DNA of 64,000 nt, taken from assembly GCA_963736855.1 (NCBI GenBank), contig CAVTQK010000009.1:160001-224000 (forward strand). Reading direction: 5' to 3'. The notes under the pieces are model-generated. The model was not told the DNA's origin. It ran no database searches and saw only the letters and a list, made by a program, of their open reading frames with translations. This stretch comes from an uncultured delta proteobacterium (GTDB taxonomy: Bacteria; Desulfobacterota; Desulfobacteria; Desulfobacterales; UBA2156). Both the position numbers and the translations under genes were made by a program. Below, one piece after another: positions 42,648 through 57,057 of the stretch. The first letter of the stretch is position 1; each line of letters starts with the position of its first letter.

Positions 42648-43271
42648 TTATGTTTTCAGTTGCCCAATCCGTCTCATCAGCTCTTCGACAAGAGCGAGAT
42701 CCTTTTGTCCCGGACGCTTTTCGACACCGCTGTTGACATCAACGGCATAGGGTCTGACCATCCGAACGGCTTGTTGAATGTTTTCAGGGGTCAGCCCGCC
42801 TGATAGAATGATCGGGATACCATGTTTCCGGGCTTTAACGGCGAGCTTCCAGTCGAAGGTTTCCCCGGTACCCCCCATTTTTACACTGTGGTAGGTGTCC
42901 AATACAGCTCCTTTGACAACCCCGCGGTAAGAATTTATCGCTGAAAGGCTTGAGGGGTTCTGTATCCGAAATGCCTTGATTGCCGAAAAAGGCAGATTGC
43001 GACAATAATCGGGGGTTTCTTCTCCATGAAGCTGAACCAGATCCAGACCACAGAATGTCGCAATATCGAGAAGCGTCCTGGGCCGCTCATCCACAAAGAC
43101 TCCTACAGACCGGACAAACGGCGGGAGGTTATCGATGATCGCCTTCGCTTTTTCCGGAGACACCCGCCGGGGGCTTTCGGCGAATATGAATCCCAGTGCG
43201 TCGACTCCGCAGCGCACGGCCCATAACGCATCCCGGATGCGGGTGATCCCGCAGATTTTGACTCTGACCAT
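42648..43271 (-). CDS. trpF: Phosphoribosylanthranilate isomerase
   Basis: VKICGIT, SPRRV, VQLHGEE, GGTGETFDW, DVNSGVE. Confidence 0.96.
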   Translation of the reverse strand: MVRVKICGITRIRDALWAVRCGVDALGFIFAESPRRVSPEKAKAIIDNLPPFVRSVGVFVDERPRTLLDIATFCGLDLVQLHGEETPDYCRNLPFSAIKAFRIQNPSSLSAINSYRGVVKGAVLDTYHSVKMGGTGETFDWKLAVKARKHGIPIILSGGLTPENIQQAVRMVRPYAVDVNSGVEKRPGQKDLALVEELMRRIGQLKT

Positions 43272-43274
43272 ACC

Positions 43275-44057
43275 CTACATTTTTCCTGCATGGACAAGGG
43301 AACGAGTTTTCGAAACGATATCCTTGCTGTCCATGAGTGAAGTCCCGACCAAAACAGCCTGAATCCCCAACGGCTTCAACTTCTCGATATCCTCCGCACT
43401 CCGGATTCCGCTTTCACTGACGATAACGCAACCCTTAGGGATCAGGGGAGCAATCCGGATCGAGACGCCGATATCGACCTGGAAGGTATCCAAATTGCGA
43501 TTGTTGATCCCGACAACGAAGGCGTTGCATGCCATGGACTTTTCAAGATCTTTTTCATCGTGAATCTCAACCAAAGCCGCCATCCCGAAGTTTTTGCAGA
43601 TGCCGAGCATTTCCTCCAATTGCTCCTTGGATAAGATCCGGGCGATTAAAAGAACTGCATCTGCGCCGTTTATAAAAGATTGAGCAATTTGCACCTCATC
43701 GATAATGAAATCCTTCCGCAAGACCGGAAGGCAAACCGCTTTCTTCAGGACAGAAATATCCCGGATATCCCCTTCGAAAAATCGCTTATCCGTCACTAGG
43801 GATATCGCGGCCGCCCCGGCGGTTTCATAGGCTTTTCCGATCCGGGAGCTGTCCCGCTTTATAAAAAAACGACCCGAAGAAGGAGAGGCGTATTTGACTT
43901 CCGCGATCAGATTGATCTGTCCGGTCCTGCATACGGCCTCCTTGAAATCGCGGACGGGAAGCAAATCGGCGTTCCGGTTTTCTCCGACGCCTTTCGCTCT
44001 GAGCATTTTGACTTCTTCGACTTTTTCATCCATGATCTTTTTCAGAATGGGGTTCAT
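43275..44057 (-). CDS. trpC: Indole-3-glycerol phosphate synthase
   Basis: IAEVKYASPS, LRKDFIID, GINNRNL, SESGI. Confidence 0.96.
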   Translation of the reverse strand: MNPILKKIMDEKVEEVKMLRAKGVGENRNADLLPVRDFKEAVCRTGQINLIAEVKYASPSSGRFFIKRDSSRIGKAYETAGAAAISLVTDKRFFEGDIRDISVLKKAVCLPVLRKDFIIDEVQIAQSFINGADAVLLIARILSKEQLEEMLGICKNFGMAALVEIHDEKDLEKSMACNAFVVGINNRNLDTFQVDIGVSIRIAPLIPKGCVIVSESGIRSAEDIEKLKPLGIQAVLVGTSLMDSKDIVSKTRSLVHAGKM

Positions 44058-44064
44058 AACTCTT

Positions 44065-45147
44065 TTATGCTCTTTTTCTTAAAAATGGGTTGCATTGTTT
44101 TGTAAAGGCGATGAGTTGGTCAAGCTTTTGCTTCGCACATCCGGAATCGATGGATTCTTTGGCCCTCTCAATGCCGCCCGGAAAATCATCTTCCAGGCCT
44201 GCTGCCATGAAAGCCGCAGCAGCGTTGAGAAGGACCATATCCCTCTTCGGCCCCTTTTCGCCGTTTAAGATCTCCCGGATGATTCGGGCATTCTCTGTCG
44301 CATCGCCTCCCTTGATGGTTTCCGGTAAAGCCCTCGTCATCCCCACGTCTTCAGGTATCATAAAAGAGGTGGTCACGCGGCCTTCTTCCAATCTGGAGAT
44401 TTTGGTGGAGCCGCAGATACTGATTTCGTCGAAGGTCCCTTCTCCGCAAACCACAAACCCGGCCTTGGTTCCCAACCTCTGCAGGACATGCGCGATCTTT
44501 TCCGTTAAATCCATGTCATAAACACCGACTACCTGGGCGTTGGCGCCTGCCGGATTGCACAGCGGTCCCAGGAGGTTGAAAATGCTCCTCAGGCCGATTT
44601 CCTGTCTCGGCCCTGCAACAAATTTCATGGCGCCATGAAACAAGGGCGCATACAAGAAACCGATTCCCACCGTATTGATGCAGCTTTCCACATCGGAGGT
44701 ATTGAGATCCAGGTTGAGGCCCAGACCGGCCAGGACATCGGCGCTGCCGCATCGGCTGGAAACCGCTCGATTGCCATGCTTGGCGACTTTAACGCCGGCC
44801 CCGGCTACGACTAAGGCTGTGACAGTGGAAACATTGAAGGTATTTGTCCCGTCCCCTCCGGTTCCGCAGGTGTCAAGAACGGTCTCCTCCTCGATGTTGA
44901 TTTCATCGCGGTCGATACTCACGCTCTTGCAATGGTTTCGGGCATTGACCGGGGTCGCGTGGGCCCGCATCATCCTGGCTGCCCCGGCGATCTCCTCGAC
45001 GGTCTCCCCCTTCATCCTCATGGCGGTCATGAATGCACCGATTTGCGCCGGCGTCGCTTGTCCCGTCATGATGATTTCCATGACGCGCCCCATCTCCTGT
45101 TCCGTCAGATTCTCGTGCTTGACGAGCTTGGCAATGGCTGTTTTCAT
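44065..45147 (-). CDS. trpD: Anthranilate phosphoribosyltransferase
   Basis: DTCGTGGDG..TFNVST, KHGNRAVSSRCGSAD, FNLLGPL.NP; SD AAGGAGG. Confidence 0.96.
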   Translation of the reverse strand: MKTAIAKLVKHENLTEQEMGRVMEIIMTGQATPAQIGAFMTAMRMKGETVEEIAGAARMMRAHATPVNARNHCKSVSIDRDEINIEEETVLDTCGTGGDGTNTFNVSTVTALVVAGAGVKVAKHGNRAVSSRCGSADVLAGLGLNLDLNTSDVESCINTVGIGFLYAPLFHGAMKFVAGPRQEIGLRSIFNLLGPLCNPAGANAQVVGVYDMDLTEKIAHVLQRLGTKAGFVVCGEGTFDEISICGSTKISRLEEGRVTTSFMIPEDVGMTRALPETIKGGDATENARIIREILNGEKGPKRDMVLLNAAAAFMAAGLEDDFPGGIERAKESIDSGCAKQKLDQLIAFTKQCNPFLRKRA

Positions 45148-45730
45148 TGTTTTTTTCCTCCTTGTTGATGAGTTGAACAAAGTTTTGAATGATTTGAAAG
45201 CCTCCGTCGGTTAGGATCGACTCCGGATGAAATTGAACACCTTCAACTCGGTAGCGTTGATGCCGAAGGCCCATGATTTCATCATCTGAAGTCCATGCAC
45301 TCACCGTGAGACATGCCGGCAGGCTTTTATGATCCACGATCAGGGAATGATAGCGCGTGGCTTCAAAAGGGTTGGGCAGAGTCCGATACAGCAAACTCCC
45401 GTCATGATGAATCCGTGATGTTTTTCCATGCACGAGACGTGCTGCAGAGACTACCTTGCCGCCGAAAGCCTGGGCGATGGCCTGATGCCCCAGACAAACA
45501 CCCAGAATCGGAACCTTTCCGGAAAATTGATGAATGACCGCCATGGAGATTCCGGCTGTATCCGGACAGCCGGGACCCGGCGATATGACGATTGCAGACG
45601 GCTTCATGTCGGCAAGGGTATCGACGTCGATGGCGTCGTTTCGAAATACCCGTACATCCGAAATCAATTGCCTGAAATATTGAACCAGGTTGTAAGTGAA
45701 TGAATCATAGTTATCGATAATCGCGATCAT
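44903..45730 (-). CDS. trpG: Anthranilate synthase component II; as sequenced it runs ~80 codons into trpD
   Basis: IIDNYDSFTYN, SPGPG, GVCLGHQ, RYHSL, QFHPES. The recognisable domain ends near 45170. Confidence 0.93.
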   Translation of the reverse strand: MIAIIDNYDSFTYNLVQYFRQLISDVRVFRNDAIDVDTLADMKPSAIVISPGPGCPDTAGISMAVIHQFSGKVPILGVCLGHQAIAQAFGGKVVSAARLVHGKTSRIHHDGSLLYRTLPNPFEATRYHSLIVDHKSLPACLTVSAWTSDDEIMGLRHQRYRVEGVQFHPESILTDGGFQIIQNFVQLINKEEKNNENSHCQARQARESDGTGDGARHGNHHDGTSDAGANRCIHDRHEDEGGDRRGDRRGSQDDAGPRDPGQCPKPLQEREYRPR

Positions 45731-45758
45731 GTTTTCCTTCCCCATCTGCAGATTTTAA

Positions 45759-47231
45759 TTACCGAATCAGCTTAAGGGCCTGATTCATGGCCTCGGCCTT
45801 GTTGACCGTTTCCGTCCACTCTTTTTCGGGATCCGAATCCGCTACGATTCCGGCGCCGGATTGAAGAACCAATCTTCCCTTTTCGATCTGTGCGGTCCTT
45901 ATGGTAATGGCCAGATCCATGTTGCCTGAAAAAGAAATATAGCCTACGGCGCCCCCATAGGGCCCTCGAGATGACTGCTCCATCTCATTGATGATTTCCA
46001 TGGCGCGAACCTTAGGCGCGCCTGTCAAAGTTCCTGCCGGGAAAACAGACCTCAATAAATCCCAAGCATCGGTTCCCGGAGATAAATTGCAGCAGATATC
46101 GGATACCAGGTGCATGACATGGCTGTATCGCTCCACGTGCAGCAGTTGGGTCACGTGAACGCTTCCGGTCTCCGCCACACGGCCCAAATCGTTGCGACCA
46201 AGGTCCACCAGCATGATGTGCTCTGCTCTTTCCTTTTCGTCTTTGAGGAGATCTTTGGCCATGGCTATGTCTTCTTCCTCGTCGATTCCCCGCTGCCGGG
46301 TGCCGGCGATGGGACGAAGAAAGGCTTTTCCGTGTTCCAGTCTCACCATGGTTTCAGGAGAAGAACCGATCAGCATCGTTTCTCCCATGTCTAAATAAAA
46401 AAGGTACGGAGAAGGGTTCACGTAACGAAGGGCCCGATAAAGCTTTAAAGGATCCGGCGGATTTTCACATATAAAAGGATGGGAGATTACTGTCTGGATG
46501 ACATCTCCGGCACGGATGTAGGATTTGACTCTCCGGACTTTTTCAAGAAAGACTTCTCTTTTAAGGGTCGGCATGAGCGTATGACCCGTATCCGATCTAT
46601 TCGCTTCGATTTCAGGAGACGGATTTAATGCTGTTTCACACAGATCACTCAGTCGCTTCCTGAGTAGACGGTAATCGGCGGAGGCATGTCGGCCCGGTGT
46701 TACAAAGTATAGGATCAAAATGGAGATTGTCTTCCGGACATTGTCGAAAATGATCAGAGCATCCGGTACGATGAACTGGGACAATTCCACTTCCGGATCC
46801 ATTCGATTCGGAATCTTTTCAAAAAAAGAGACCATCTCGTAATTCAGGTAACCGACCATTCCGCACCAGAACCGAGTGGACTCAAAGACCGGCGCCGGCT
46901 TGAACTGTCTTGTGAACGCCTTCAGATAGCCCAAAGGATCCCCCTGGTGATTGTATTTATGGATCCGGCCGTTTTCTTCTACCTGGATCCGATCTGAAAA
47001 AATCCGGATCCGACTCCTGTTCGAAATCCCCATGAAACTGTATCTTCCCCATTTTTCCCCTCCGGTAACGCTTTCAAAAAGAAAAATCGGGGTCTTCAGG
47101 CGGCAGAATTTGCTCAACAGGGTAATTGGAGTCTCGGTATCACATAAAATTTCCATACAAAGTGGAATCACATTATATTGTGATGCCATCCTATTAAATG
47201 TGGTTTCATCCGGAAATTCTTTCAGGTACAT
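45759..47231 (-). CDS. trpE: Anthranilate synthase component I
   Basis: LFESV.GGEKWGRYS, NPSPY, GSSPE, EHIMLVDLGRND, GTLTGAPK. Confidence 0.96.
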   Translation of the reverse strand: MYLKEFPDETTFNRMASQYNVIPLCMEILCDTETPITLLSKFCRLKTPIFLFESVTGGEKWGRYSFMGISNRSRIRIFSDRIQVEENGRIHKYNHQGDPLGYLKAFTRQFKPAPVFESTRFWCGMVGYLNYEMVSFFEKIPNRMDPEVELSQFIVPDALIIFDNVRKTISILILYFVTPGRHASADYRLLRKRLSDLCETALNPSPEIEANRSDTGHTLMPTLKREVFLEKVRRVKSYIRAGDVIQTVISHPFICENPPDPLKLYRALRYVNPSPYLFYLDMGETMLIGSSPETMVRLEHGKAFLRPIAGTRQRGIDEEEDIAMAKDLLKDEKERAEHIMLVDLGRNDLGRVAETGSVHVTQLLHVERYSHVMHLVSDICCNLSPGTDAWDLLRSVFPAGTLTGAPKVRAMEIINEMEQSSRGPYGGAVGYISFSGNMDLAITIRTAQIEKGRLVLQSGAGIVADSDPEKEWTETVNKAEAMNQALKLIR

Positions 47232-47267
47232 CGCCGAATTCCTTCCTTGTATCGGTTATGCTCAAAT

Positions 47268-47343
47268 AGAAAGGGCCGCGATTTTCTCACGGCCCTTTCT
47301 TGAAAAAAATAAAACCGTGAGCGTCTTCCCTGCCTACGGTTTT
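47268..47343 (-). terminator. trp attenuator terminator plus downstream hairpin
   Basis: AAAACCGT...ACGGTTTT stem (47311-47343) with U-tract ATTTTTTT; second stem AGAAAGGGCCG...CGGCCCTTTCT (47268-47300). Confidence 0.75.
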
Positions 47344-47384
47344 TATCTGTTTTATTTTTTTGCTTCTTTACTTTAGATCAAAAA

Positions 47385-47480
47385 TTACCTCCCGCCGACA
47401 AGGCTCCAATTTTCGCCTTGCCATCGCCAGAATCCATCTCCATTCAGCGAGGATGGATTTATGAATATCCTTTTCTTCAA
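47385..47480 (-). CDS. trpL: trp operon leader peptide
   Basis: TTG start; MKKRIFINPSSLNGDGFWRWQGENWSLVGGR* (3 Trp), directly upstream of the terminator and trpE. Confidence 0.65.
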   Translation of the reverse strand: MKKRIFINPSSLNGDGFWRWQGENWSLVGGR

Positions 47481-47541: not shown

Positions 47542-48003
47542 TCATTTGTTTTCGGAAATCATATCGCCCATGGCCCGAAGCGCCATCCGATAGCCCTCTG
47601 TTCCGAACCCCGAAAGAGTTGCTGTGGCAATATCGGAAATCATGGAGCGATGTCGAAAAGGCTCTCGTTTATAAATATTGGATATGTGCACCTCCACAAT
47701 GGGGATATCCAGACAAAGCAACGCGTCTCGAATCGCGATGCTGGTGTGGCTGAAAGCAGCAGGATTGATAATGACCCCGGCATAGCCCTCTCTGGCTTCC
47801 TGGATTCTGTCGATGATAGCGCCTTCATGGTTGGACTGAAACATCTCAACCTCAATCCCCAGCCGCCTGCTGTCATTTTCCAATTCTTTCCGGATGGTCT
47901 CCAGTGTCTTTTTTCCATAGAGGCGGGGTTCTCTTTTGCCTAAAAGATTCAGGTTGGGACCGTGAATCACCAATACCTTGGCTTTTTGTTTCTTCACTTT
48001 CAT
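47542..48003 (-). CDS. aroQ: Type II 3-dehydroquinate dehydratase
   Basis: HGPNLNLLGKREP.LYG, QSNHEG, NPAAFSHTS, EVHISN...REPFRH. Confidence 0.96.
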   Translation of the reverse strand: MKVKKQKAKVLVIHGPNLNLLGKREPRLYGKKTLETIRKELENDSRRLGIEVEMFQSNHEGAIIDRIQEAREGYAGVIINPAAFSHTSIAIRDALLCLDIPIVEVHISNIYKREPFRHRSMISDIATATLSGFGTEGYRMALRAMGDMISENK

Positions 48004-48016
48004 CAATTCTCCAATT

Positions 48017-48874
48017 TTAAAGCACCTTCCTCTGATTTTTTTCCTGCCTGGCATCACCGACTGCCTTGGTGTAGCTCCCTAAAATTTTCACAAACAAAGC
48101 ATGGGATGAAAGCTCCTGAACGGCACCGGCGACAGCAGATGAATCCCCCCCGGCTTCAACATCCGCGTAAAAAACGTACTCCCAGGGATTATCCGGTATG
48201 GGCCGGGATTCCAGCTTGGTCAGGTTCAATTGATTTTCCTGAAAGATTTTAAGGCAATCCACAAGCGCCCCAGGCCGATGCCGGGTTTTAAAGGCCAATG
48301 AAGTCTTTTCCTGAAAATCACTGATTTCCCCCTTTTGATTTTTTGCGATGACAAGAAAACGCGTCGTGTTGGTCTGAGTGGATTGAATATTCTTTTTCAG
48401 GATATCCAGGCCGTAGATCTCCGCGCATAGTATGGAAGAAATGGCCGCCCACTTTTTTGAAGAGCGCTTCGCGACCTCCTTTGCCGCACCGGCCGTATCA
48501 TAGGCCGGGACCGCTTTGAGGCCATGCTGTCTGAGAAACGCCTTGCATTGATTAAGCGCATGGGGATGGGAAAGCACGCGGGAAATATCGACGAACCGCG
48601 CTCCTTTTTTGGCTAAAAGCATGTGGGCAATAGCCATATAGACCTCCGCCCGGACCACGACATCATGACTCAGCAAAAGATCGTAGTTTTCTACTACCGT
48701 CCCCGCAATGGTGTTCTCGGCAGGAACGAATCCGAATTCCACCTTTGCTTCCATGACGGCCTTAAATACTTCTTCAAAGCTCGCACAACTCACCGGTTGC
48801 GCCTCTGATTTGAAATGCCTTTTCAGCGCCATTTCACTGTAGGCTCCGCGGATTCCCTGAAAGGCGACTCTCAT
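48017..48874 (-). CDS. pheA: Monofunctional prephenate dehydratase (PDT-ACT)
   Basis: VAFQGIRGAYSE, ENTIAG, SHPHAL.QC, NTTRF, LTKLESRP; no chorismate mutase domain. Confidence 0.93.
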   Translation of the reverse strand: MRVAFQGIRGAYSEMALKRHFKSEAQPVSCASFEEVFKAVMEAKVEFGFVPAENTIAGTVVENYDLLLSHDVVVRAEVYMAIAHMLLAKKGARFVDISRVLSHPHALNQCKAFLRQHGLKAVPAYDTAGAAKEVAKRSSKKWAAISSILCAEIYGLDILKKNIQSTQTNTTRFLVIAKNQKGEISDFQEKTSLAFKTRHRPGALVDCLKIFQENQLNLTKLESRPIPDNPWEYVFYADVEAGGDSSAVAGAVQELSSHALFVKILGSYTKAVGDARQEKNQRKVL

Positions 48875-49596
48875 GCTTCCAGCTCTTTTGCAATCTCCTG
48901 CATGGCATTCACGAATGCCATGCGGATTTTCCCGGCAAAGGGGTTATATCGGTGCATGTCGTAAAAAAGCTCCCAAGTATCGTTTTGAACTACATTCAGG
49001 ATATGCAGCAGGCGTTTGTACCCCTCGGTGTCCATCTGCAAGGGTTTTGCTCCGCAGGCAGAGAGACTGCGTCCGATGAAGTGCGTTAAAGAAAGGCTGA
49101 AAGCAACCTCACGGTCGTGGGCTTCTGGAGTGGATTCGATGAGGACCAGCCCCTTCGCTTCCAAGTATGCTTTGATTTTCCGGTAATCCGGAGTCTTGAG
49201 CCGAACCGGACAAAGGAATATTTTATGCCCGACCAAGGAATCCGCAGCGCTGTCCGGACCGAACATGGGATGACACGCCAGTATGGACGTAAAATGGGGC
49301 AGGATCCTTTCCATCCATTGAACCGGATAAGTCTTGACGGAGCACACATCGATTACCAATGCATCCTCCTTCAAGTGCGGTGCCATTTGTTCGAGTAAAA
49401 GCTTCATCTTGGAAATGGGAACGGCCAGTATCACCACATCCTGTTTGCAGACCTCGGGAAGGTCGACAGGAATCGCGCCGAGGGAGCGAATAGAATCCGC
49501 CGAATCGATTTCATCATAAATATAAATTTTAAAATCTTCCATCAGATGTCTGGCCATGAAGCGACCGAACCGGCCGAAACCGATGATGCCGATCAT
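48871..49596 (-). CDS. tyrA: Prephenate/arogenate dehydrogenase (stand-alone)
   Basis: GIIGFGRFG, DVCSVK, HPMFGPDS, HD. Confidence 0.9.
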   Translation of the reverse strand: MIGIIGFGRFGRFMARHLMEDFKIYIYDEIDSADSIRSLGAIPVDLPEVCKQDVVILAVPISKMKLLLEQMAPHLKEDALVIDVCSVKTYPVQWMERILPHFTSILACHPMFGPDSAADSLVGHKIFLCPVRLKTPDYRKIKAYLEAKGLVLIESTPEAHDREVAFSLSLTHFIGRSLSACGAKPLQMDTEGYKRLLHILNVVQNDTWELFYDMHRYNPFAGKIRMAFVNAMQEIAKELEA

Positions 49597-49648
49597 TATC
49601 GCCTTTCGATTCTTTCCGATTCCTTCCAATTCAGAACCTCCAGCCAAG

Positions 49649-50725
49649 TCACCGGATCTTTTGCCTTGCGGCCAAATCCGCAAGGACCAAAGCCGCCATG
49701 CCTTCAACGATCGGCACGGCCCTCGGGAGGACACAAGGATCATGCCGGCCGGCCCCTTTCAGCACCACAGGATTGCCGTCGTAATCCACAGTTTCCTGGG
49801 GCTTGGCGATGGTCGAAGTAGGTTTGAAGGCCGTTCGAAAATAAATGGCTTCTCCGTTGGTGATTCCTCCCTGGACTCCTCCGCTGAAGTTGGTTTTTGT
49901 TCCCAGACGACCGTTGCGCTTGACAAACAAGTCGTTGTGTTTCGAGCCCGGCATTCGGGTTCCCTCAAATCCCGAACCGATGTCGAACCCCTTGCATGCC
50001 GGTATCGAGAGCATGGCTTGGGCCAGCATGGCCTCGGTCTTATCAAAGACGGGTTCTCCGAGGCCTGCGGGAACACTGCGGCACACACACATGATGATGC
50101 CGCCCAGAGACTCGCCGGCATCACGGGCTTCACGGATGGCCCGGGCCATTTTTTCGGCGCAGGGCCCTTCCGGGCACCGCACCGGGTGGCGATCCGCATC
50201 AGCCCGTGTGACGATCTCAGGATCCACGGTTTCGCACGAAATGGATCCGACAGCCATAACCCATGCCACGATCTGTGTTCCATAGCTCTCAAAAAGGATT
50301 TTTTCGGCTACGGCGCCGGCGGCGACCCTGGCTGCGGTCTCTCTTGCGCTGGCCCTTCCCCCACCACTTTTTGACTGGATGCCGTACTTTAAGCGATAAG
50401 TGTAGTCGGCATGCGATGGACGGGGAATGTTCGCTAATTCCCCGTAGTCGGACGGGCGGCTATCCTTATTATCGATATAAAGGGCCACAGGCGTTCCCAG
50501 CGTCTTTCCGTCCTCTACACCGGAAAGAATCCTTACCCGATCCGCCTCTTTTCTGGGGGATGTAAGCGTGCTTTGTCCGGGGCGACGCCGATCGAGTTGG
50601 GGCTGGATATCTTTTTCCGAAAGGTCGATCCGGGGAGGACACCCCTCGATGACCACTCCGATGCCCGGCCCATGAGATTCACCGAAGGTCGTGATTCGGA
50701 ACAATGTGCCGAAGGAACTGGACAT
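49649..50725 (-). CDS. aroC: Chorismate synthase
   Basis: [30 protein letters not shown]. Confidence 0.97.
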
Positions 50726-50750
50726 GATATTATTCCTCAAGAACCGTTAC

Positions 50751-50832
50751 TGATGGCTTCGTAAAAAGTCCATCTCTCGCTTGCAAAAGCTTTTTACGAA
50801 GCCATCAATTTTGAGTTTTTACGATTTCATCA
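50751..50832. mobile_element. MITE-like element, short copy
   Basis: Ends TGATGGCTTCGTAAAAAG / GAGTTTTTACGATTTCATCA shared with 57888-58042; TTAC duplicated on both flanks. Confidence 0.75.
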
Positions 50833-51398
50833 TTACTGACGTCGCAAAGGTTTTTTGGTTTAACCGGATGGATCGACTCCCGATTTCGGATCAGACAAGC
50901 CAGAATTTCTCCGGCCGTTGCCGCCGCAGAGCGTACGTCGGTGGAAATTGAAATATCCGCAGCCCATGCGTACAGCGGCGTTCGTCCGGCCAGCTCCAGA
51001 TCGATTTCTTCTGCAGCCCCTTGTGAAGTTAAGGCCGGACGGAAAGCATCTGTTGCCGGATCCGCCATCATTCGGGATCGGATGGTTTCGGATCTGGCTG
51101 TCAGCCAGATGATTTTTCCGTTTTTTTTCATGAGAGTGATGTTTCGGTTCTCCAGGACAATCCCTCCGCCGGTGGCCACGACCTGCCGATTTTTCTGAAT
51201 GATGTCTATCAAAGCCCTTTGTTCCCAGTACCTGAAAACCGGCCATCCTGAGATTGTGACGATCTCTTTGATGCTGCATCCGGAAGCCGCTGTCACCCAA
51301 TCGTCGGTATCGACAAAAGACCATTCCATTCGGTCGGCCAGGACTTTTCCGATGCTCGTTTTTCCCGAACAACGGTATCCGATAAGAAAAAGGTTCAT
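50805..51398 (-). CDS. aroK: Shikimate kinase
   Basis: GYRCSGKT, DTD, GW..FR..E, ATGGG, RP.L. Confidence 0.92.
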   Translation of the reverse strand: MNLFLIGYRCSGKTSIGKVLADRMEWSFVDTDDWVTAASGCSIKEIVTISGWPVFRYWEQRALIDIIQKNRQVVATGGGIVLENRNITLMKKNGKIIWLTARSETIRSRMMADPATDAFRPALTSQGAAEEIDLELAGRTPLYAWAADISISTDVRSAAATAGEILACLIRNRESIHPVKPKNLCDVSNDEIVKTQN

Positions 51399-51399
51399 C

Positions 51400-52659
51400 T
51401 CAATGCAGCCCTTCCCAAATTTTCCAGAAATCCGGAAACGATTTTCCTACGCAGGCATCGTTATCGATATAAACACCTGGTGTCTTTAGGCCGGCTGCGG
51501 CAAAGCTCATGGCGATCCGGTGGTCATCCTGCGTAGCAATAACCGCCCCATGCGGAATACCCCCTTGAATGCTTAACCCGTCCTCATGGGCCGTAGCCTC
51601 AATGCCCATCTTCCGAAGCCCGGTAACCACCGTATCGATACGGTCGCTCTCTTTTCCCTTCAAGTGGCCCACGCCTTTAATGACGGTCCGGCCCTTTGCA
51701 TAGGCCGCAACCACCGCAATCGTCGGCACTGCGTCCGGGAGATCCGACATATCGGCCTCGATGGCATGCAAGGATCCACCGATCACGCATATCCCATCGG
51801 GTTCTCTCACAACCGTGCAGCCCATCTCCTCCAGCAAACTTACAATCCGCAAATCCCCTTGCCGGGTATCCGGATCGATACCGGTTGCGGTGATAGTTCC
51901 GCCGCTGATGGCCGCAGCCCCCCAGAAGTATCCGGCCTGGGAGCAATCTCCTTCCACCCAAAACCTTCGTGAGCGGTAATGCTGGCTTCCCGGGACGATG
52001 AAACGATCGTACCCGATCCGCTGAGAATGCACTCCGAAGGCTTCCATGACTTCTAGTGTGAGGTCTACATAGGGTTTGGATACCGGTCCGTGTGTGACCT
52101 CTATCTCGAGTCCTGCGGGTATACAAGGTGCCATGAACAAAAGACCGGAAAGGAACTGGCTGCTTCTTCTGCAATCGAGTCGAACCCTGGAGGCCAAATG
52201 GGAGCCGGCGACGATTTCAACCGGCGGGCATCCGTTTTCAGCCAGAGAGCGGGCCGGAACCCCCAGCTGATTCAAGCCGTCGATGAGCTCTTGGATGGGT
52301 CGCTGTTTCATGCGGTTGTTTCCCGTGAGCCGATAAATTCCCTCTCCAAGTACCACAAGGGCTGTCAAGAGCCGGATGGACGTTCCTGAATTCCCGAGAT
52401 CCAGAGTTTCCCTGCAGGATCGAAAGCGGCCATCGCATCCGACAACTTGAAGCCGATTTTCGTCTGTTTGTGTAATAGAGACACCGAGACGATCCAAAGC
52501 CTGAATCGTCAGGTTTGTATCTTGGCAGGATAAGGCATTGTCGATAATGGAAACGCCATGGGCCAGTCCCGCCGCCAACAAGGCCCGATGCGTCAGGCTC
52601 TTGGATCCCGGCACCGTGATTCGGTTTTCCGTTATGGGGCGAGGCTCTATGGGCTTCAT
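51400..52659 (-). CDS. aroA: 3-phosphoshikimate 1-carboxyvinyltransferase
   Basis: PGSKSLTHR, GNSGTSIR, SSQFLSG, KESDR, DDHRIAM, KSFPDF; ATGA overlap with the upstream gene. Confidence 0.96.
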   Translation of the reverse strand: MKPIEPRPITENRITVPGSKSLTHRALLAAGLAHGVSIIDNALSCQDTNLTIQALDRLGVSITQTDENRLQVVGCDGRFRSCRETLDLGNSGTSIRLLTALVVLGEGIYRLTGNNRMKQRPIQELIDGLNQLGVPARSLAENGCPPVEIVAGSHLASRVRLDCRRSSQFLSGLLFMAPCIPAGLEIEVTHGPVSKPYVDLTLEVMEAFGVHSQRIGYDRFIVPGSQHYRSRRFWVEGDCSQAGYFWGAAAISGGTITATGIDPDTRQGDLRIVSLLEEMGCTVVREPDGICVIGGSLHAIEADMSDLPDAVPTIAVVAAYAKGRTVIKGVGHLKGKESDRIDTVVTGLRKMGIEATAHEDGLSIQGGIPHGAVIATQDDHRIAMSFAAAGLKTPGVYIDNDACVGKSFPDFWKIWEGLH

Positions 52660-53837
52660 GTATTTTTCCCCGCAACGCACAGATGCTCCAATACGACCTT
52701 GCGCATCTCAGCCACAGGAGCCTTTTGACCGGTCCATAATTCGAATTGCCGGGCGCCCTGATGGACGAACATAGAGACACCGTCGATGGGGATCGCCCCG
52801 TGTTTTTCCGCCGCCTGGAGCAGCCTTGTCCGGACCGGATTGTAAACGATATCCATGACCACGCTGCCCGGCCGTATCGCCTTTTCCGGAATCGGCATCT
52901 CTGCTTCATGGGGCCACATCCCCACCGGAGTGGCATGGATCAGAATATCCGGGTCCTTGCCGTCGAATTCCGACAGCAAGCGGAAGTCGGCCCCTAGGTT
53001 GCGGGCCAGCGCTTCTCCCTTGGTCCTGGAACGGTTGTAAAGAATCAGCTGCGCCCCGAAGCGGACGAGTTCCAAGCCGATAGCCCGGGCTGCGCCCCCG
53101 GCTCCGATGATCGCCACGATCTTCCCTTTGACCGGCGTCTTTTCGAGCAAAGCCCTTATCGAGGCCTCGCCGTCCGTATTATATCCGATCAGGCGTCCCC
53201 CATGATTCAAAATCGTGTTTACAGCTCCGGCCGATTCGGCCGATTCATGGAGTTCGTCCAGATACTCCATGACGGCGATTTTAAAAGGAAGTGTCACACT
53301 GATCCCTTTCGCATAGAGGCTTCTTAATCCTTGGATAGCCGTAGCAATTTCCTTTACCTGAAACGCCAGGTAGACGCCGTTATATCCCGTCACTTGCATA
53401 GCTCGGTTGTGCATGACAGGGCTCAGGCTGTGGAATACCGGGTTCCCGATGACGCCAAAAAGCTCTGTCCGGGCATCTGCCGGATGCAGATTGCAGGATA
53501 TGGGTCTTTCGCTTTTCTCCGGCCTCGGATCACGACAGTTCGATCCGTTTTCTTCCTGGACCGCGCGGGAAGCGTCTATGAGGATGCGCATGATTCGTTC
53601 CAGGTGGTCCTCTTTCAAAGGTCCCCGGTTTTTAGACGCCAGGCACCTGACAATCTCTTCTTCCCGTTTGGGATCGATAACGACATCTCCACATTGCTTC
53701 TTGAGCTTCCCGATCCTTCCGGCGATCCGGAGTCGACGATTGGCCAGTTCCAGAATCTTTTCGTCGATGGCGTCGATGGATTTACGCAGATCCGACAGAC
53801 TGCCAAGCCCGTCCAGATGGTCTTTAGGATTTTCCAT
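52656..53837 (-). CDS. aroE: Chorismate mutase (AroQ class)-shikimate dehydrogenase fusion
   Basis: N-terminal LRKSIDAID...NRR...KLKK...DPKRE...ASRAVQ; then GNPVFHSLSP.MHN, VTLPFK, GAVNT, NTD, GAGGAA. Confidence 0.92.
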   Translation of the reverse strand: MENPKDHLDGLGSLSDLRKSIDAIDEKILELANRRLRIAGRIGKLKKQCGDVVIDPKREEEIVRCLASKNRGPLKEDHLERIMRILIDASRAVQEENGSNCRDPRPEKSERPISCNLHPADARTELFGVIGNPVFHSLSPVMHNRAMQVTGYNGVYLAFQVKEIATAIQGLRSLYAKGISVTLPFKIAVMEYLDELHESAESAGAVNTILNHGGRLIGYNTDGEASIRALLEKTPVKGKIVAIIGAGGAARAIGLELVRFGAQLILYNRSRTKGEALARNLGADFRLLSEFDGKDPDILIHATPVGMWPHEAEMPIPEKAIRPGSVVMDIVYNPVRTRLLQAAEKHGAIPIDGVSMFVHQGARQFELWTGQKAPVAEMRKVVLEHLCVAGKNT

Positions 53838-54861
53838 GGATATCCGACATCAACCGTTTCAGTTTTTCCATTGAAATGCGTTCAACCCGGGCCTCTCCGA
53901 GTCGGTTTAAAAACACGAAGTGAATCCCATCTCCTTCGCGTTTCTTGTCCTTTCCGAGCACTGGAAATAAGCGATCACTCTCCAAATCGATGGCTACAGG
54001 CAGGTCCAAACGTTGCAAGAGTCGGATCAGCCGCTGGACCTCGGTTTTACTTAAAGATCCTTCTTGAACCGAAACCCCGGCAGCCATGACCATGCCGATG
54101 CTCACCGCATGGCCGTGAGGCAAGCCCGTGATTGTCTCAATGGCATGGCCGAACGTGTGGCCGAAATTCAGCTTTCGGCGTTCTCCGGCTTCCCTTTCAT
54201 CGGCCTCGACGATCGATGCCTTGATCTGAACGGATTCATAAATCAGTTTCTCAAGAATCGGGGGCTCCAAGGCCAAAATTTCATGCGCGTGGTTTTCCAT
54301 GAAGCTCAACAAGGGTTCATGAGCAATGGCCGCGTGTTTGACGATCTCGGCCAACCCACAAGACACTTCCTTTTCAGGCAATGTTTTTAACACTAAAGGA
54401 TCACACAGGACGAATTCCGGCTGACGGATGGTCCCCACCATATTCTTGTAGCCTTCGAAATTCACCCCGTTTTTTCCTCCGATGGCGGCGTCCACCTGGG
54501 CCAAAAGGGTCGTTGCAACAAGACCGAACCGGACGCCCCGCAGGAAAGTCGAGGCTGTAAATCCCGCCACATCACAAACGATCCCTCCGCCGATACCCAC
54601 CATAAAACTGGAGCGGTCCGCCTGCAGCCGGATGAGTCGGTCATAAAGATCGTAAACGGTCTTTAAAGTTTTAGCGGATTCTCCGATGCCGATCGGAATT
54701 ACCTGTCCCTTTGGAAACCGATTTCCATAATACTTTTGCACCGTGGAATCCGTGATGAGGATGGGATTTTCGACGGGGATATGCCGGGCCAGATCAACGA
54801 GCCCTTCGCCGATCAAAAGACGTGAGGAATTCGGATATCCTTTTAATTGAATTGTCGGCAT
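53824..54861 (-). CDS. aroB: 3-dehydroquinate synthase
   Basis: GESAKT, GGGIVCD, TTLLAQVDAAIGGKNG, LNFGHTFGHAIE, HGHAV, DKK. Confidence 0.95.
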   Translation of the reverse strand: MPTIQLKGYPNSSRLLIGEGLVDLARHIPVENPILITDSTVQKYYGNRFPKGQVIPIGIGESAKTLKTVYDLYDRLIRLQADRSSFMVGIGGGIVCDVAGFTASTFLRGVRFGLVATTLLAQVDAAIGGKNGVNFEGYKNMVGTIRQPEFVLCDPLVLKTLPEKEVSCGLAEIVKHAAIAHEPLLSFMENHAHEILALEPPILEKLIYESVQIKASIVEADEREAGERRKLNFGHTFGHAIETITGLPHGHAVSIGMVMAAGVSVQEGSLSKTEVQRLIRLLQRLDLPVAIDLESDRLFPVLGKDKKREGDGIHFVFLNRLGEARVERISMEKLKRLMSDIHGKS

Positions 54862-54866
54862 TGCTT

Positions 54867-55925
54867 TTAGGCTCTTGATGAGGTCTGCATCAAACGATCG
54901 TGCGTGTTCGTAATGAGTGCTTCCGTCGTTTCCCATGAGATGCATTCATCGGTAATCGATACGCCGTACCGGAGGGTGCTCCAGTCGCCGTTGAACGTCT
55001 GGTTTCCTTCATGCAAATTGCTTTCGAGCATGAGCCCGATGACGGCCTCGCTTCCGGCAAGGCACTGGGCGATGACGTTTTTCCATACTACGGGTTGTCC
55101 CTGATATTTTTTCATGCAGTTGCCATGGGAACAATCCACTATGACGGCCTCAGGCAGCCCTTTTTCGATCAGTTTCAACCGGGCCTCTTCAATGGTGATG
55201 GGGTCGTAGTTTGGCCGCTTTCCCCCTCTCAAGACGATGTGGCCCCAGGGATTGCCGGCCGTTTTCACGACACACGTAGTGCCTTCCTGATCGATTCCCA
55301 GAAAACTTTGGGGGGCCTTCGCCGCAAGCATCGCATTAATGGCCGAGGTCGTATTCCCGTCGGTACCGTTCTTGAAGCCTACCGGCATGGACAGGCCGCT
55401 GGCCATTTCCCGGTGGGTTTGAGATTCAATGGTGCGTGCTCCCACCGCGGCCCAACAGATTAAATCGGCTACGTATTGAGGGGTGATGGGGTCTAAAAAT
55501 TCGGTGGCGGTGGGAAGTCCCATTTCGGTGACCCGAAGCAACAGCCACCGGGCCATGCGCAATCCCTCCGACATATTGCAGGTTCCGTCCAGAGAAGGAT
55601 CGTTGATGAAGCCTTTCCAGCCGATCGTAGTACGCGGTTTTTCAAAATAGACCCTCATCACCAGAAAGAGGGTCTTTTCAACCTTCTCCTTTAAAACAGA
55701 TAGTCTCTGGGCATATTCCAGGGCGGTCTTTTCATCATGGATGGAGCACGGGCCAACAATCACCAAAAGCCGCTTATCTCTTTTGGAAAGTATACCCTCG
55801 ATGGATTCTCGCCCCCGGTGCACGCAATCGACCGCCCGATCGCTGAGCGGCATCTGTTTCTTTAAGACACTTGGAATCATCAACGGATGGTACCCTTTCA
55901 CCCTCAGGTCTTCTGTTGATTTCAT
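54867..55925 (-). CDS. DAHP synthase, class I-alpha (AroF/G/H type)
   Basis: GPCSIHD, RVYFEKPRTTIGWKG, GARTIESQTHRE, DCSHGN, SITDEC. Confidence 0.96.
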   Translation of the reverse strand: MKSTEDLRVKGYHPLMIPSVLKKQMPLSDRAVDCVHRGRESIEGILSKRDKRLLVIVGPCSIHDEKTALEYAQRLSVLKEKVEKTLFLVMRVYFEKPRTTIGWKGFINDPSLDGTCNMSEGLRMARWLLLRVTEMGLPTATEFLDPITPQYVADLICWAAVGARTIESQTHREMASGLSMPVGFKNGTDGNTTSAINAMLAAKAPQSFLGIDQEGTTCVVKTAGNPWGHIVLRGGKRPNYDPITIEEARLKLIEKGLPEAVIVDCSHGNCMKKYQGQPVVWKNVIAQCLAGSEAVIGLMLESNLHEGNQTFNGDWSTLRYGVSITDECISWETTEALITNTHDRLMQTSSRA

Positions 55926-55993: not shown

Positions 55994-56043
55994 AAAAAGC
56001 AAAAAAGCCGTGGGGGCTTTTTTCATCCACCCACGGCTTTTTT
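55994..56043 (-). terminator. aro attenuator intrinsic terminator
   Basis: AAAAAAGCCGTGGG...CCCACGGCTTTTTT followed by GCTTTTT. Confidence 0.85.
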
Positions 56044-56060
56044 CTTAAAAGGCTATGCCA

Positions 56061-56132
56061 TCAATCCATGGGCAGATGTCTCCTGCTAAAATAAAACCAA
56101 TAAAAATTCTGCCAGGATCGATAAATATACAT
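56061..56132 (-). CDS. Aromatic (Phe/Tyr/Trp) leader peptide of the aro operon
   Basis: SD AAAGGA; MYIYRSWQNFYWFYFSRRHLPMD* (4 Tyr, 3 Phe, 2 Trp in 23 aa). Confidence 0.88.
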   Translation of the reverse strand: MYIYRSWQNFYWFYFSRRHLPMD

Positions 56133-56161
56133 TATAAGATTCCTTTAACTGATGATGGACC

Positions 56162-56189
56162 TTTATATGAGCGTCGATCCCCCTGTCAA
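56162..56189 (-). promoter_or_regulatory. Putative aro operon promoter
   Basis: TTGACA-16-TATAAA, about 30 nt upstream of the leader ATG. Confidence 0.65.
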
Positions 56190-56369: not shown

Positions 56370-56407
56370 GGAGAAAGCCCCAAGAAGGGATTTTCCTTCT
56401 TGGGGCT
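56370..56407 (-). terminator. Intrinsic terminator of the lipoprotein gene
   Basis: 13-bp stem AGCCCCAAGAAGG/CCTTCTTGGGGCT just after the stop at 56425. Confidence 0.7.
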
Positions 56408-56424: not shown

Positions 56425-57057
56425 TTATTTTTTCTTTTGGGGTAGTTTGGTGGCGGCAGCCTTTATCAATTCTTCAGCCTTGACCTTGGCGTCGGCGATT
56501 CCCTGCTCCAACTGTCCGAGCTGATCTTTGATCGCGGTGGCTTTACCCTTGACTTCATTAAATTTTCCTTCGGAAATCATCCCGCTTAACTCGCCGATCT
56601 CCGTTTCTGCCGCAACCAGTTGATCTTTAATGGGTTGCAGCAAGTCAGCGGGTATCTTTGCAGCCTCCGCCTCCGTAATGAGACCTTTCGCTTTTTCAAC
56701 TCCCTGGTTGATTTCATTCACAAGGGCATCGGAGGTTTCCTTGGCTTTTGCCTTCCCCGCCTCGATGGCCGCTTTTGCTTTATCAGCGGCGTCTTTTACC
56801 TGAATTGCAGTTTGCTTTGCCGCTTTATAATCCTTCTTTTCAATCTGCGAATCCAGTTTGACCATCAAATCCTGTGCCGCTTTCAACGCATCGGGAGCGA
56901 ACTGTTCCGCTCCACCGGATATGGCCGCCTGGAGGGCTGCCTTGGATGCATCAATTTCTTGTTTCGGCGGTTGGCCTCCGCAAGCTGAAATGAAGGCGAT
57001 CGTCAGTATACAGCAGAAAAATACGCTTAATTTCCGGATGAAACTTTCCCTTTTCAT
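56425..57057 (-). CDS. Ala/Lys-rich helical lipoprotein (DUF4398-like)
   Basis: Lipobox ISAC, then PPKQEIDASKAALQAA..GAEQFAP. Confidence 0.75.
   Translation of the reverse strand: MKRESFIRKLSVFFCCILTIAFISACGGQPPKQEIDASKAALQAAISGGAEQFAPDALKAAQDLMVKLDSQIEKKDYKAAKQTAIQVKDAADKAKAAIEAGKAKAKETSDALVNEINQGVEKAKGLITEAEAAKIPADLLQPIKDQLVAAETEIGELSGMISEGKFNEVKGKATAIKDQLGQLEQGIADAKVKAEELIKAAATKLPQKKK

Follow-up and report, generated by a model that had tools for sequence, protein, structure and literature searches.

A conserved Tyr- and Phe-rich leader, probably a ribosome-mediated attenuator, before the aromatic amino-acid operon of Desulfobacterales

On the minus strand of the window—that is, the whole 64,000-nucleotide stretch analyzed here, from an uncultured delta proteobacterium of the order Desulfobacterales—a nine-gene aromatic amino-acid operon is preceded by a short leader that we read, with good confidence from sequence comparison, as a classical ribosome-mediated transcription attenuator, in which a shortage of Tyr or Phe tRNA would switch on the operon. 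An earlier note on this DNA, made from its letters alone, had proposed attenuation, and that reading is now strongly supported in silico by the conservation of the leader, by the covariation of three mutually exclusive helices, and by ribosome geometry. The leader contains a Shine-Dalgarno (SD)-led ORF, clustered codons for end products of the pathway, a terminator before the first gene, and an antiterminator exclusive with that terminator; in silico, a stalled ribosome frees the 5′ arm of the antiterminator (segment 2), and a ribosome at the stop codon covers it. The leader is real and conserved, and it is very likely functional. Furthermore, neither TrpR nor TyrR scored over the cut-off in the genome, which is 100% complete, and this absence is counted in favor of attenuation. 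Some caution about arguing from anatomy comes from the Streptomyces ilvB leader, in which control-codon substitution is described in PMC1262725 as having had no effect.

Anatomy of the leader

The promoter, SD motif, leader ORF, and aromatic codons that the earlier note had described were all recovered on the minus strand. The predicted promoter, TTGACA-16-TATAAA, spans 56162..56189 (TTGACA at 56189-56184 and TATAAA at 56167-56162), and the SD motif AAAGGA at 56146-56141 lies 8 nt before the ATG at 56132 of a predicted 23-codon leader-peptide ORF (56061..56132). Nine of the 23 codons are aromatic (Y2, Y4, W7, F10, Y11, W12, F13, Y14, and F15; 4 Tyr, 3 Phe, and 2 Trp), and codons 10-15 (56088..56105) form the uninterrupted run of control codons FYWFYF, with the last aromatic codon ending 12 nt before the core of segment 2. 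A consensus promoter scan of the window returned 0 promoters, the −10 box at 56167-56162 being without its final T. This lack is a trait common to the relatives described below: a −35-like hexamer (best of three spacings) was found in 86 of 93, and the best −10 box among those 86 begins with T in 80, has A as its second base in 81, and ends with T in only 23. Across these 86 loci, the family promoters combine a near-perfect −35 with a −10 that rarely ends in T.

Segment 1 (56108..56118; codons 5-9, with the W7 codon inside) is predicted to pair with segment 2 if the ribosome is absent, forming a 1:2 hairpin (56118-56108 with 56076-56064) that joins codons 5-9 to codons 19-23 and that is absent from the earlier note. 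Segment 2 (56066..56078; codons 19-22/23), identified by folding and by covariation of helix 2:3, is the 5′ arm of the antiterminator, and segment 3 (56024..56036), identified by folding and covariation, is common to antiterminator and terminator. The antiterminator 2:3 (56078-56066 with 56036-56024) has 13 bp, 3 of them G-U, and −21.3 kcal/mol for the span, and the predicted intrinsic terminator (55994..56043; −23.8 kcal/mol) consists of the 3:4 hairpin at 56043-56001 and a U tail, the U's continuing past the hairpin to 55994. The U-tailed terminator and the competing 13-bp helix had both been proposed before, and folding bears them out. The folding z-score of the leader is −3.9, with 0 of 200 shuffles equally good, and its lowest-energy fold holds the terminator together with the 1:2 hairpin.

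Only 1 of the 17,693 SD-led short-ORF starts in the genome has at least 7 aromatic residues in 10 with a terminator behind, and this is the aro leader; with at least 6 in 10, the number is 32, of which 5 have a terminator. A search of the window with Rfam at the gathering score (Phe, Trp, His, Thr, and Leu leaders, T-box, and riboswitches) gave 0 matches, and an NCBIfam search with the leader peptide gave no match. Farther upstream, a strong hairpin at 56376..56407 (minus strand; 13-bp stem, −25.4 kcal/mol) closes the preceding gene, likely as its terminator, and likely sets the leader apart from upstream transcription. The ORF just upstream of the leader (56425-57057, minus strand) encodes 210 aa, is rich in Ala and Lys, has a lipoprotein-like start, and has no NCBIfam match.

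The operon

The nine genes from DAHP synthase to aroQ that had been placed downstream of the leader were confirmed by profile matches, some of which score under curated cut-offs yet have a clear best family. The first, aroF (54867..55919, minus strand), encodes a class I DAHP synthase, the sole class I copy found in the genome, and is followed at 47542..54945 on the same strand by aroB, a chorismate mutase-aroE fusion, aroA, shikimate kinase, aroC, prephenate dehydrogenase, prephenate dehydratase, and type II dehydroquinase. The earlier name of "shikimate operon" fits the trunk genes but is too narrow, since chorismate mutase, prephenate dehydrogenase, and prephenate dehydratase are also present; the nine genes thus cover the shikimate trunk together with both the Phe and the Tyr branch. 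A hairpin-plus-U scan of the operon detected a single weak candidate, within aroB, and none between the operon genes or in the interval from the last of them to the trp leader downstream. The fusion of chorismate mutase to shikimate dehydrogenase lies at 52656-53837 (minus strand). A second DAHP-family match in the genome was rejected as a DAHP synthase, being a KDO8P synthase, and dehydroquinate synthase II was not found in this genome.

Proposed switching

In the proposed mechanism, the polymerase would pause once hairpin 1:2 has been made and wait there for a ribosome to load. The switch would be triggered when charged tRNA-Tyr or tRNA-Phe runs short: a ribosome stalled at any position up to codon 14 would cover segment 1 and leave segment 2 free, so that 2:3 would form and the operon would be transcribed, whereas a ribosome past codon 15 would cover segment 2, so that 3:4 would form and transcription would stop near 55995-56001. 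When the leader was folded with a ribosome mask, the antiterminator probability was 0.97-1.0 for A-site codons 1-14, borderline at codon 15, and at most 0.07 from codon 16 on; with no ribosome, 1:2 formed (0.88) and then the terminator, with the antiterminator at 0.01. Of the 93 relatives, 88 switch alike, with an at-stop state that is largely imposed by the mask. With half of segment 4 present, the equilibrium model favors the terminator for several stall positions, and the switch must therefore be kinetic. With no ribosome, the antiterminator 2:3 still prevails in 66 of 93 relatives, and helix 1:2 is therefore weak in many of them. As for the pause, the consensus G-10/Y-1/G+1 given in PMC9291695 recurs behind segment 2 in 71 of 93 leaders, G-10 being missing here, although these positions were included in the anchor motif.

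Conservation and covariation in relatives

The search of relatives for DAHP synthase gave matches in 17 of 41 and 106 of 301 genomes, from which 97 order-level loci were examined, the 19 weakest remaining rows of the 301-genome search being left out; 76 unrelated DAHP synthase loci, taken from the matches listed in a scan of named genomes, and 291 shuffles served as controls. The earlier note had suggested looking in related genomes for a Phe/Tyr/Trp-rich upstream ORF before DAHP synthase. Such an aromatic-rich ORF followed by a terminator is present at 90 of the 97 order loci versus 5 of 76 unrelated loci and 3 of 291 shuffles or, at the stricter threshold of at least 6 aromatic residues in 10, at 86 of 97 versus 0 of 76 and 0 of 291, the shuffles being 350 nt long and the real loci up to 700 nt. 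The closest named relatives with the same leader among the matches listed are Desulfobacteraceae and kin. No leader was found at the other 7 of the 97 loci: one is an internal gene, one a second copy that is also internal, and one a divergent paralogue, and the remaining four are L111, L147, L159, and L171, where the search covered about 700 nt upstream of DAHP synthase. With four named loci added to the 90 and one duplicate removed, a set of 93 leaders was obtained.

An SD-like motif precedes the ORF in 72 of the 93 leaders. The last aromatic codon lies 6-12 nt from the segment-2 core in 84 of 93, a spacing that would match the ribosome reach of up to 12 nt given in PMC4833913. The segment-2 core is in the frame of the leader ORF in 87 of 93, with one exception, L020, being an anchor error, and the distance from core to stop is 18 nt in 75 of 93. 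The stop codon falls 7-11 nt short of the segment-2 core in L012, L123, L129, and L131, where a ribosome that has reached it may leave the core uncovered; these leaders may rely on ribosome release and refolding of 1:2.

Covariation was assessed on a sequence-only alignment of the 93 leaders, and compensatory changes, for which the earlier note had proposed a check, were found in all three helices. Helix 1:2 is paired in 82% of cells with 24 two-sided changes, helix 2:3 in 92% with 36, and helix 3:4 in 96% with 63, levels reached by 0 of 500 shuffles in each case, the related sequences not being independent; slid-helix controls were 11-60% paired. The counts of pairs or of pair types are unexceptional for 1:2 and 2:3 (24-203 of 500 shuffles).

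Amino acids sensed

Tyr and Phe each occur in 93 of 93 leaders, with means of 4.5 Tyr and 3.4 Phe, whereas Trp occurs in 44, is absent from 49, and is present two or more times in 6. The ten control codons of each leader (930 in all) comprise 389 Tyr, 246 Phe, 41 Trp, 15 Cys, and 12 Leu, and the one-step neighbors Leu (1.3%) and Ile (0.6%) are rare in frame. As an input, Trp is not conserved across the leader family; it has its own gate downstream, in the trp leader. Within the control codons, Trp appears from the alignment to be tolerated or mildly favored: it is present in 36 of 93 leaders, with 19 state changes on a quick DAHP synthase tree, at least 12 of which are forced by well-supported branches. 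In two of three congeners, Tyr takes the place of W12, and W7, lying within segment 1, may owe its presence to pairing. The Trp codon might be imposed by an inner hairpin that requires GG; pairing at the columns concerned is patchy, with G-C in 47 of 93 and 26 of 93. In mask folding, both W7 and W12 fall in the range of codons at which a stalled ribosome frees the antiterminator. The OR gate over all three aromatic amino acids that had been suggested earlier is thus possible at this locus but does not hold as the function of the family, and a third, probably weaker, Trp input in this genome is quite conceivable while falling just short of probable. Natural leaders with and without Trp codons bear on how few codons are needed to add an input to an attenuator.

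Several other explanations of the leader were weighed. It could be an attenuator with one effective amino acid, Tyr or Phe, the remaining aromatic codons being tolerated fill; the aroR leader of Corynebacterium glutamicum, with Phe-Tyr-Phe, is described in PMC11802643 as responding to Phe only, and Tyr dominates the control segment here (389 Tyr to 246 Phe and 41 Trp, of 930). Tyr and Phe are nevertheless both present in 93 of 93 leaders, with Leu and Ile as rare neighbors. Nearly pure runs stand before other genes (Tyr before 2 acyl-CoA ligases and Phe before 2 transporter operons, described below), and the codon mix therefore appears tuned. Dependence on one amino acid is improbable. An arrest peptide of the ribosome-tunnel type, like TnaC, would sense a free aromatic amino acid or an intermediate through the C-terminal motif G-L-P-x-V-R, and both a C-terminal pattern and the stop position do recur (18 nt from core to stop, 75 of 93). 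We consider such a peptide very unlikely: the motif nucleotides persist in L012, L110, L123, L129, and L131 although they lie outside the reading frame or beyond the stop codon there, the stop lies inside them in L176, and Leu is replaced by Pro where base pairing stays. The constraint on the C-terminal pattern acts on the RNA, with the peptide pattern as a by-product.

Little credence is likewise given to a protein or metabolite that chooses between antiterminator and terminator, with the ORF incidental. The U-rich run could serve as a binding site, but conservation extends to the SD, the start codon, and the phase, the window matched no Rfam T-box or riboswitch, and the share of aromatic codons is 73% in the ORF frame versus 20% and 22% in the two alternative frames, a comparison that is partly circular, the ORFs having been chosen so. 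Finally, that the terminator is constitutive or the arrangement due to chance is hardly credible in view of the helix covariation, the excess of leaders over control loci and shuffles, and the uniqueness of this leader among the short ORFs of the genome.

Relation to known attenuators

The nearest precedent for attenuation by this Tyr- and Phe-rich leader, going by published description, is the Phe-Tyr-Phe leader aroR before aroF in C. glutamicum (Neshat et al., 2014, as cited in PMC11802643 and PMC7356990). In both cases, a short Phe/Tyr leader ORF precedes a DAHP synthase operon, and ribosome stalling is described as raising transcription for aroR. In contrast to the three control codons and Phe-only response described there, the present leader has 6-9, dominated by Tyr and with optional Trp, and heads all of the trunk genes as well as those of the Phe and Tyr branches. 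The attenuators trpL, pheL, and pheM of E. coli share with it the four-segment 1:2 / 2:3 / 3:4 logic and the intrinsic terminator but, as outlined in PMC11802643, sense one amino acid each, and the window has no match to an Rfam family. With regard to sulfate-reducing bacteria, a putative pheL before pheA has been predicted in Desulfobacterium autotrophicum (PMC3082878) and a putative attenuator before an aroA′-aroB′-pheA-tyrA-trp supraoperon in Desulfovibrio vulgaris (PMC1173090, Table 7). These predictions likewise place attenuation before aromatic genes, and aroA′-led operons carry the leader family in our RNA-model search; unlike here, the portions of those two reports consulted mention neither a Tyr/Phe/Trp leader nor an RNA family.

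The mechanism is a textbook one, and the leader family is uncatalogued in Rfam. The ilvGMEDA leader reads Ile, Leu, and Val. The earlier statement that classical attenuators sense one amino acid was overstated, as E. coli thrL is described in PMC9291695 as responding to two, Thr and Ile. The OR logic proposed for the aro leader resembles these two in that one leader serves several end products of a branched pathway, though thrL and ilvGMEDA belong to other pathways with unrelated RNA. Neither an Rfam family nor a paper was found for the Desulfobacterales aro leader family, which comparative attenuation surveys may already list. The family supplies a well-covarying RNA missing from Rfam, and it likely explains the regulation of aromatic amino acids in a large group of anaerobes without recognizable TrpR or TyrR.

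The trp leader and the wider RNA family

Downstream of the nine genes on the minus strand lie trpE, trpG, trpD, trpC, and trpF (42648..47231), identified by profile matches except for trpG, which was assigned from sequence and position only. A second, unannotated leader ORF before trpE (47385..47480) has 31 codons from TTG with 3 Trp, has its own TTGACA at 47532-47527, and is followed at 47262..47345 by a terminator and a second hairpin (47300-47268) on the same scaffold as the aro leader. All 5 relatives that were checked retain this Trp run, one of them being cut by the contig end. No Rfam match was found for 47480-47262. A covariance model built from 47 of the 93 leaders ranks the aro leader best and the trp leader second-best in this genome, the latter at E 3.4e-4, which suggests that the two share a common scaffold. 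A loose search of the genome for the scaffold pattern gave 70 matches, with a convincing leader ORF only at the aro and trp leaders. The trp genes may be under nested control through the trp leader. A second hairpin with a similar arm after the terminator occurs at many loci (e.g., L005, L006, L010, and L208); within the window, it is present behind the trp leader and absent behind the aro leader.

The model recovered 7 of 7 held-out leaders and L020 at E <1e-8; the five trp leaders scored weakly, and 0 of 16 unrelated DAHP synthase loci matched. Using RNA only, it matches 88 of 151 genomes of the phylum at E ≤0.001, though the E-values are rough and weak matches may be generic terminators. 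The 29 new loci that were read are the best of these matches; a Phe- or Tyr-rich ORF is present at 29 of 29 and includes Trp in 14. The next gene, readable at 27, encodes a DhnA-type aldolase at 15, a DAHP synthase at 5, a shikimate kinase at 3, a periplasmic binding protein at 2, and an acyl-CoA ligase at 2. All 5 of the DhnA-type aldolases checked are ADH synthase, the enzyme of an alternative first step of the pathway, and both of the ADH-synthase operons read go on with dehydroquinate synthase II, aroE, and aroA.

We tentatively combine these observations into a reading that we hold possible but somewhat doubtful, namely, an ancient, reprogrammable scaffold with a codon run for each gene, spread across a phylum of sulfate reducers and their kin, together with a true three-input OR gate at this locus in series with a Trp-only gate. 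If the scaffold is of this kind, Tyr plus Phe (plus Trp) runs would stand before three kinds of first enzyme for making aromatic amino acids, Trp before trpE, Phe before transporters, and Tyr before acyl-CoA ligases; if the gates are in series, aro read-through transcripts must pass the Trp-only gate to reach the trp genes. The codon run may also hint at the function of the gene downstream, as for the acyl-CoA ligases behind Tyr runs and the transporters behind Phe runs. Runs of Tyr only, 8 and 5 codons long, stand before genes for ADP-forming acyl-CoA ligases in two genomes, at L202 and L218 (L226 and L227); it may be speculated that these ligases activate an aryl acid for Tyr salvage. At L211 and L217 (L228 and L229), the leaders are Phe-rich and almost Tyr-free, and the operons behind them encode a periplasmic binding protein, an ABC ATPase, and an AMP-binding enzyme, which suggests uptake of Phe or of an aryl acid.
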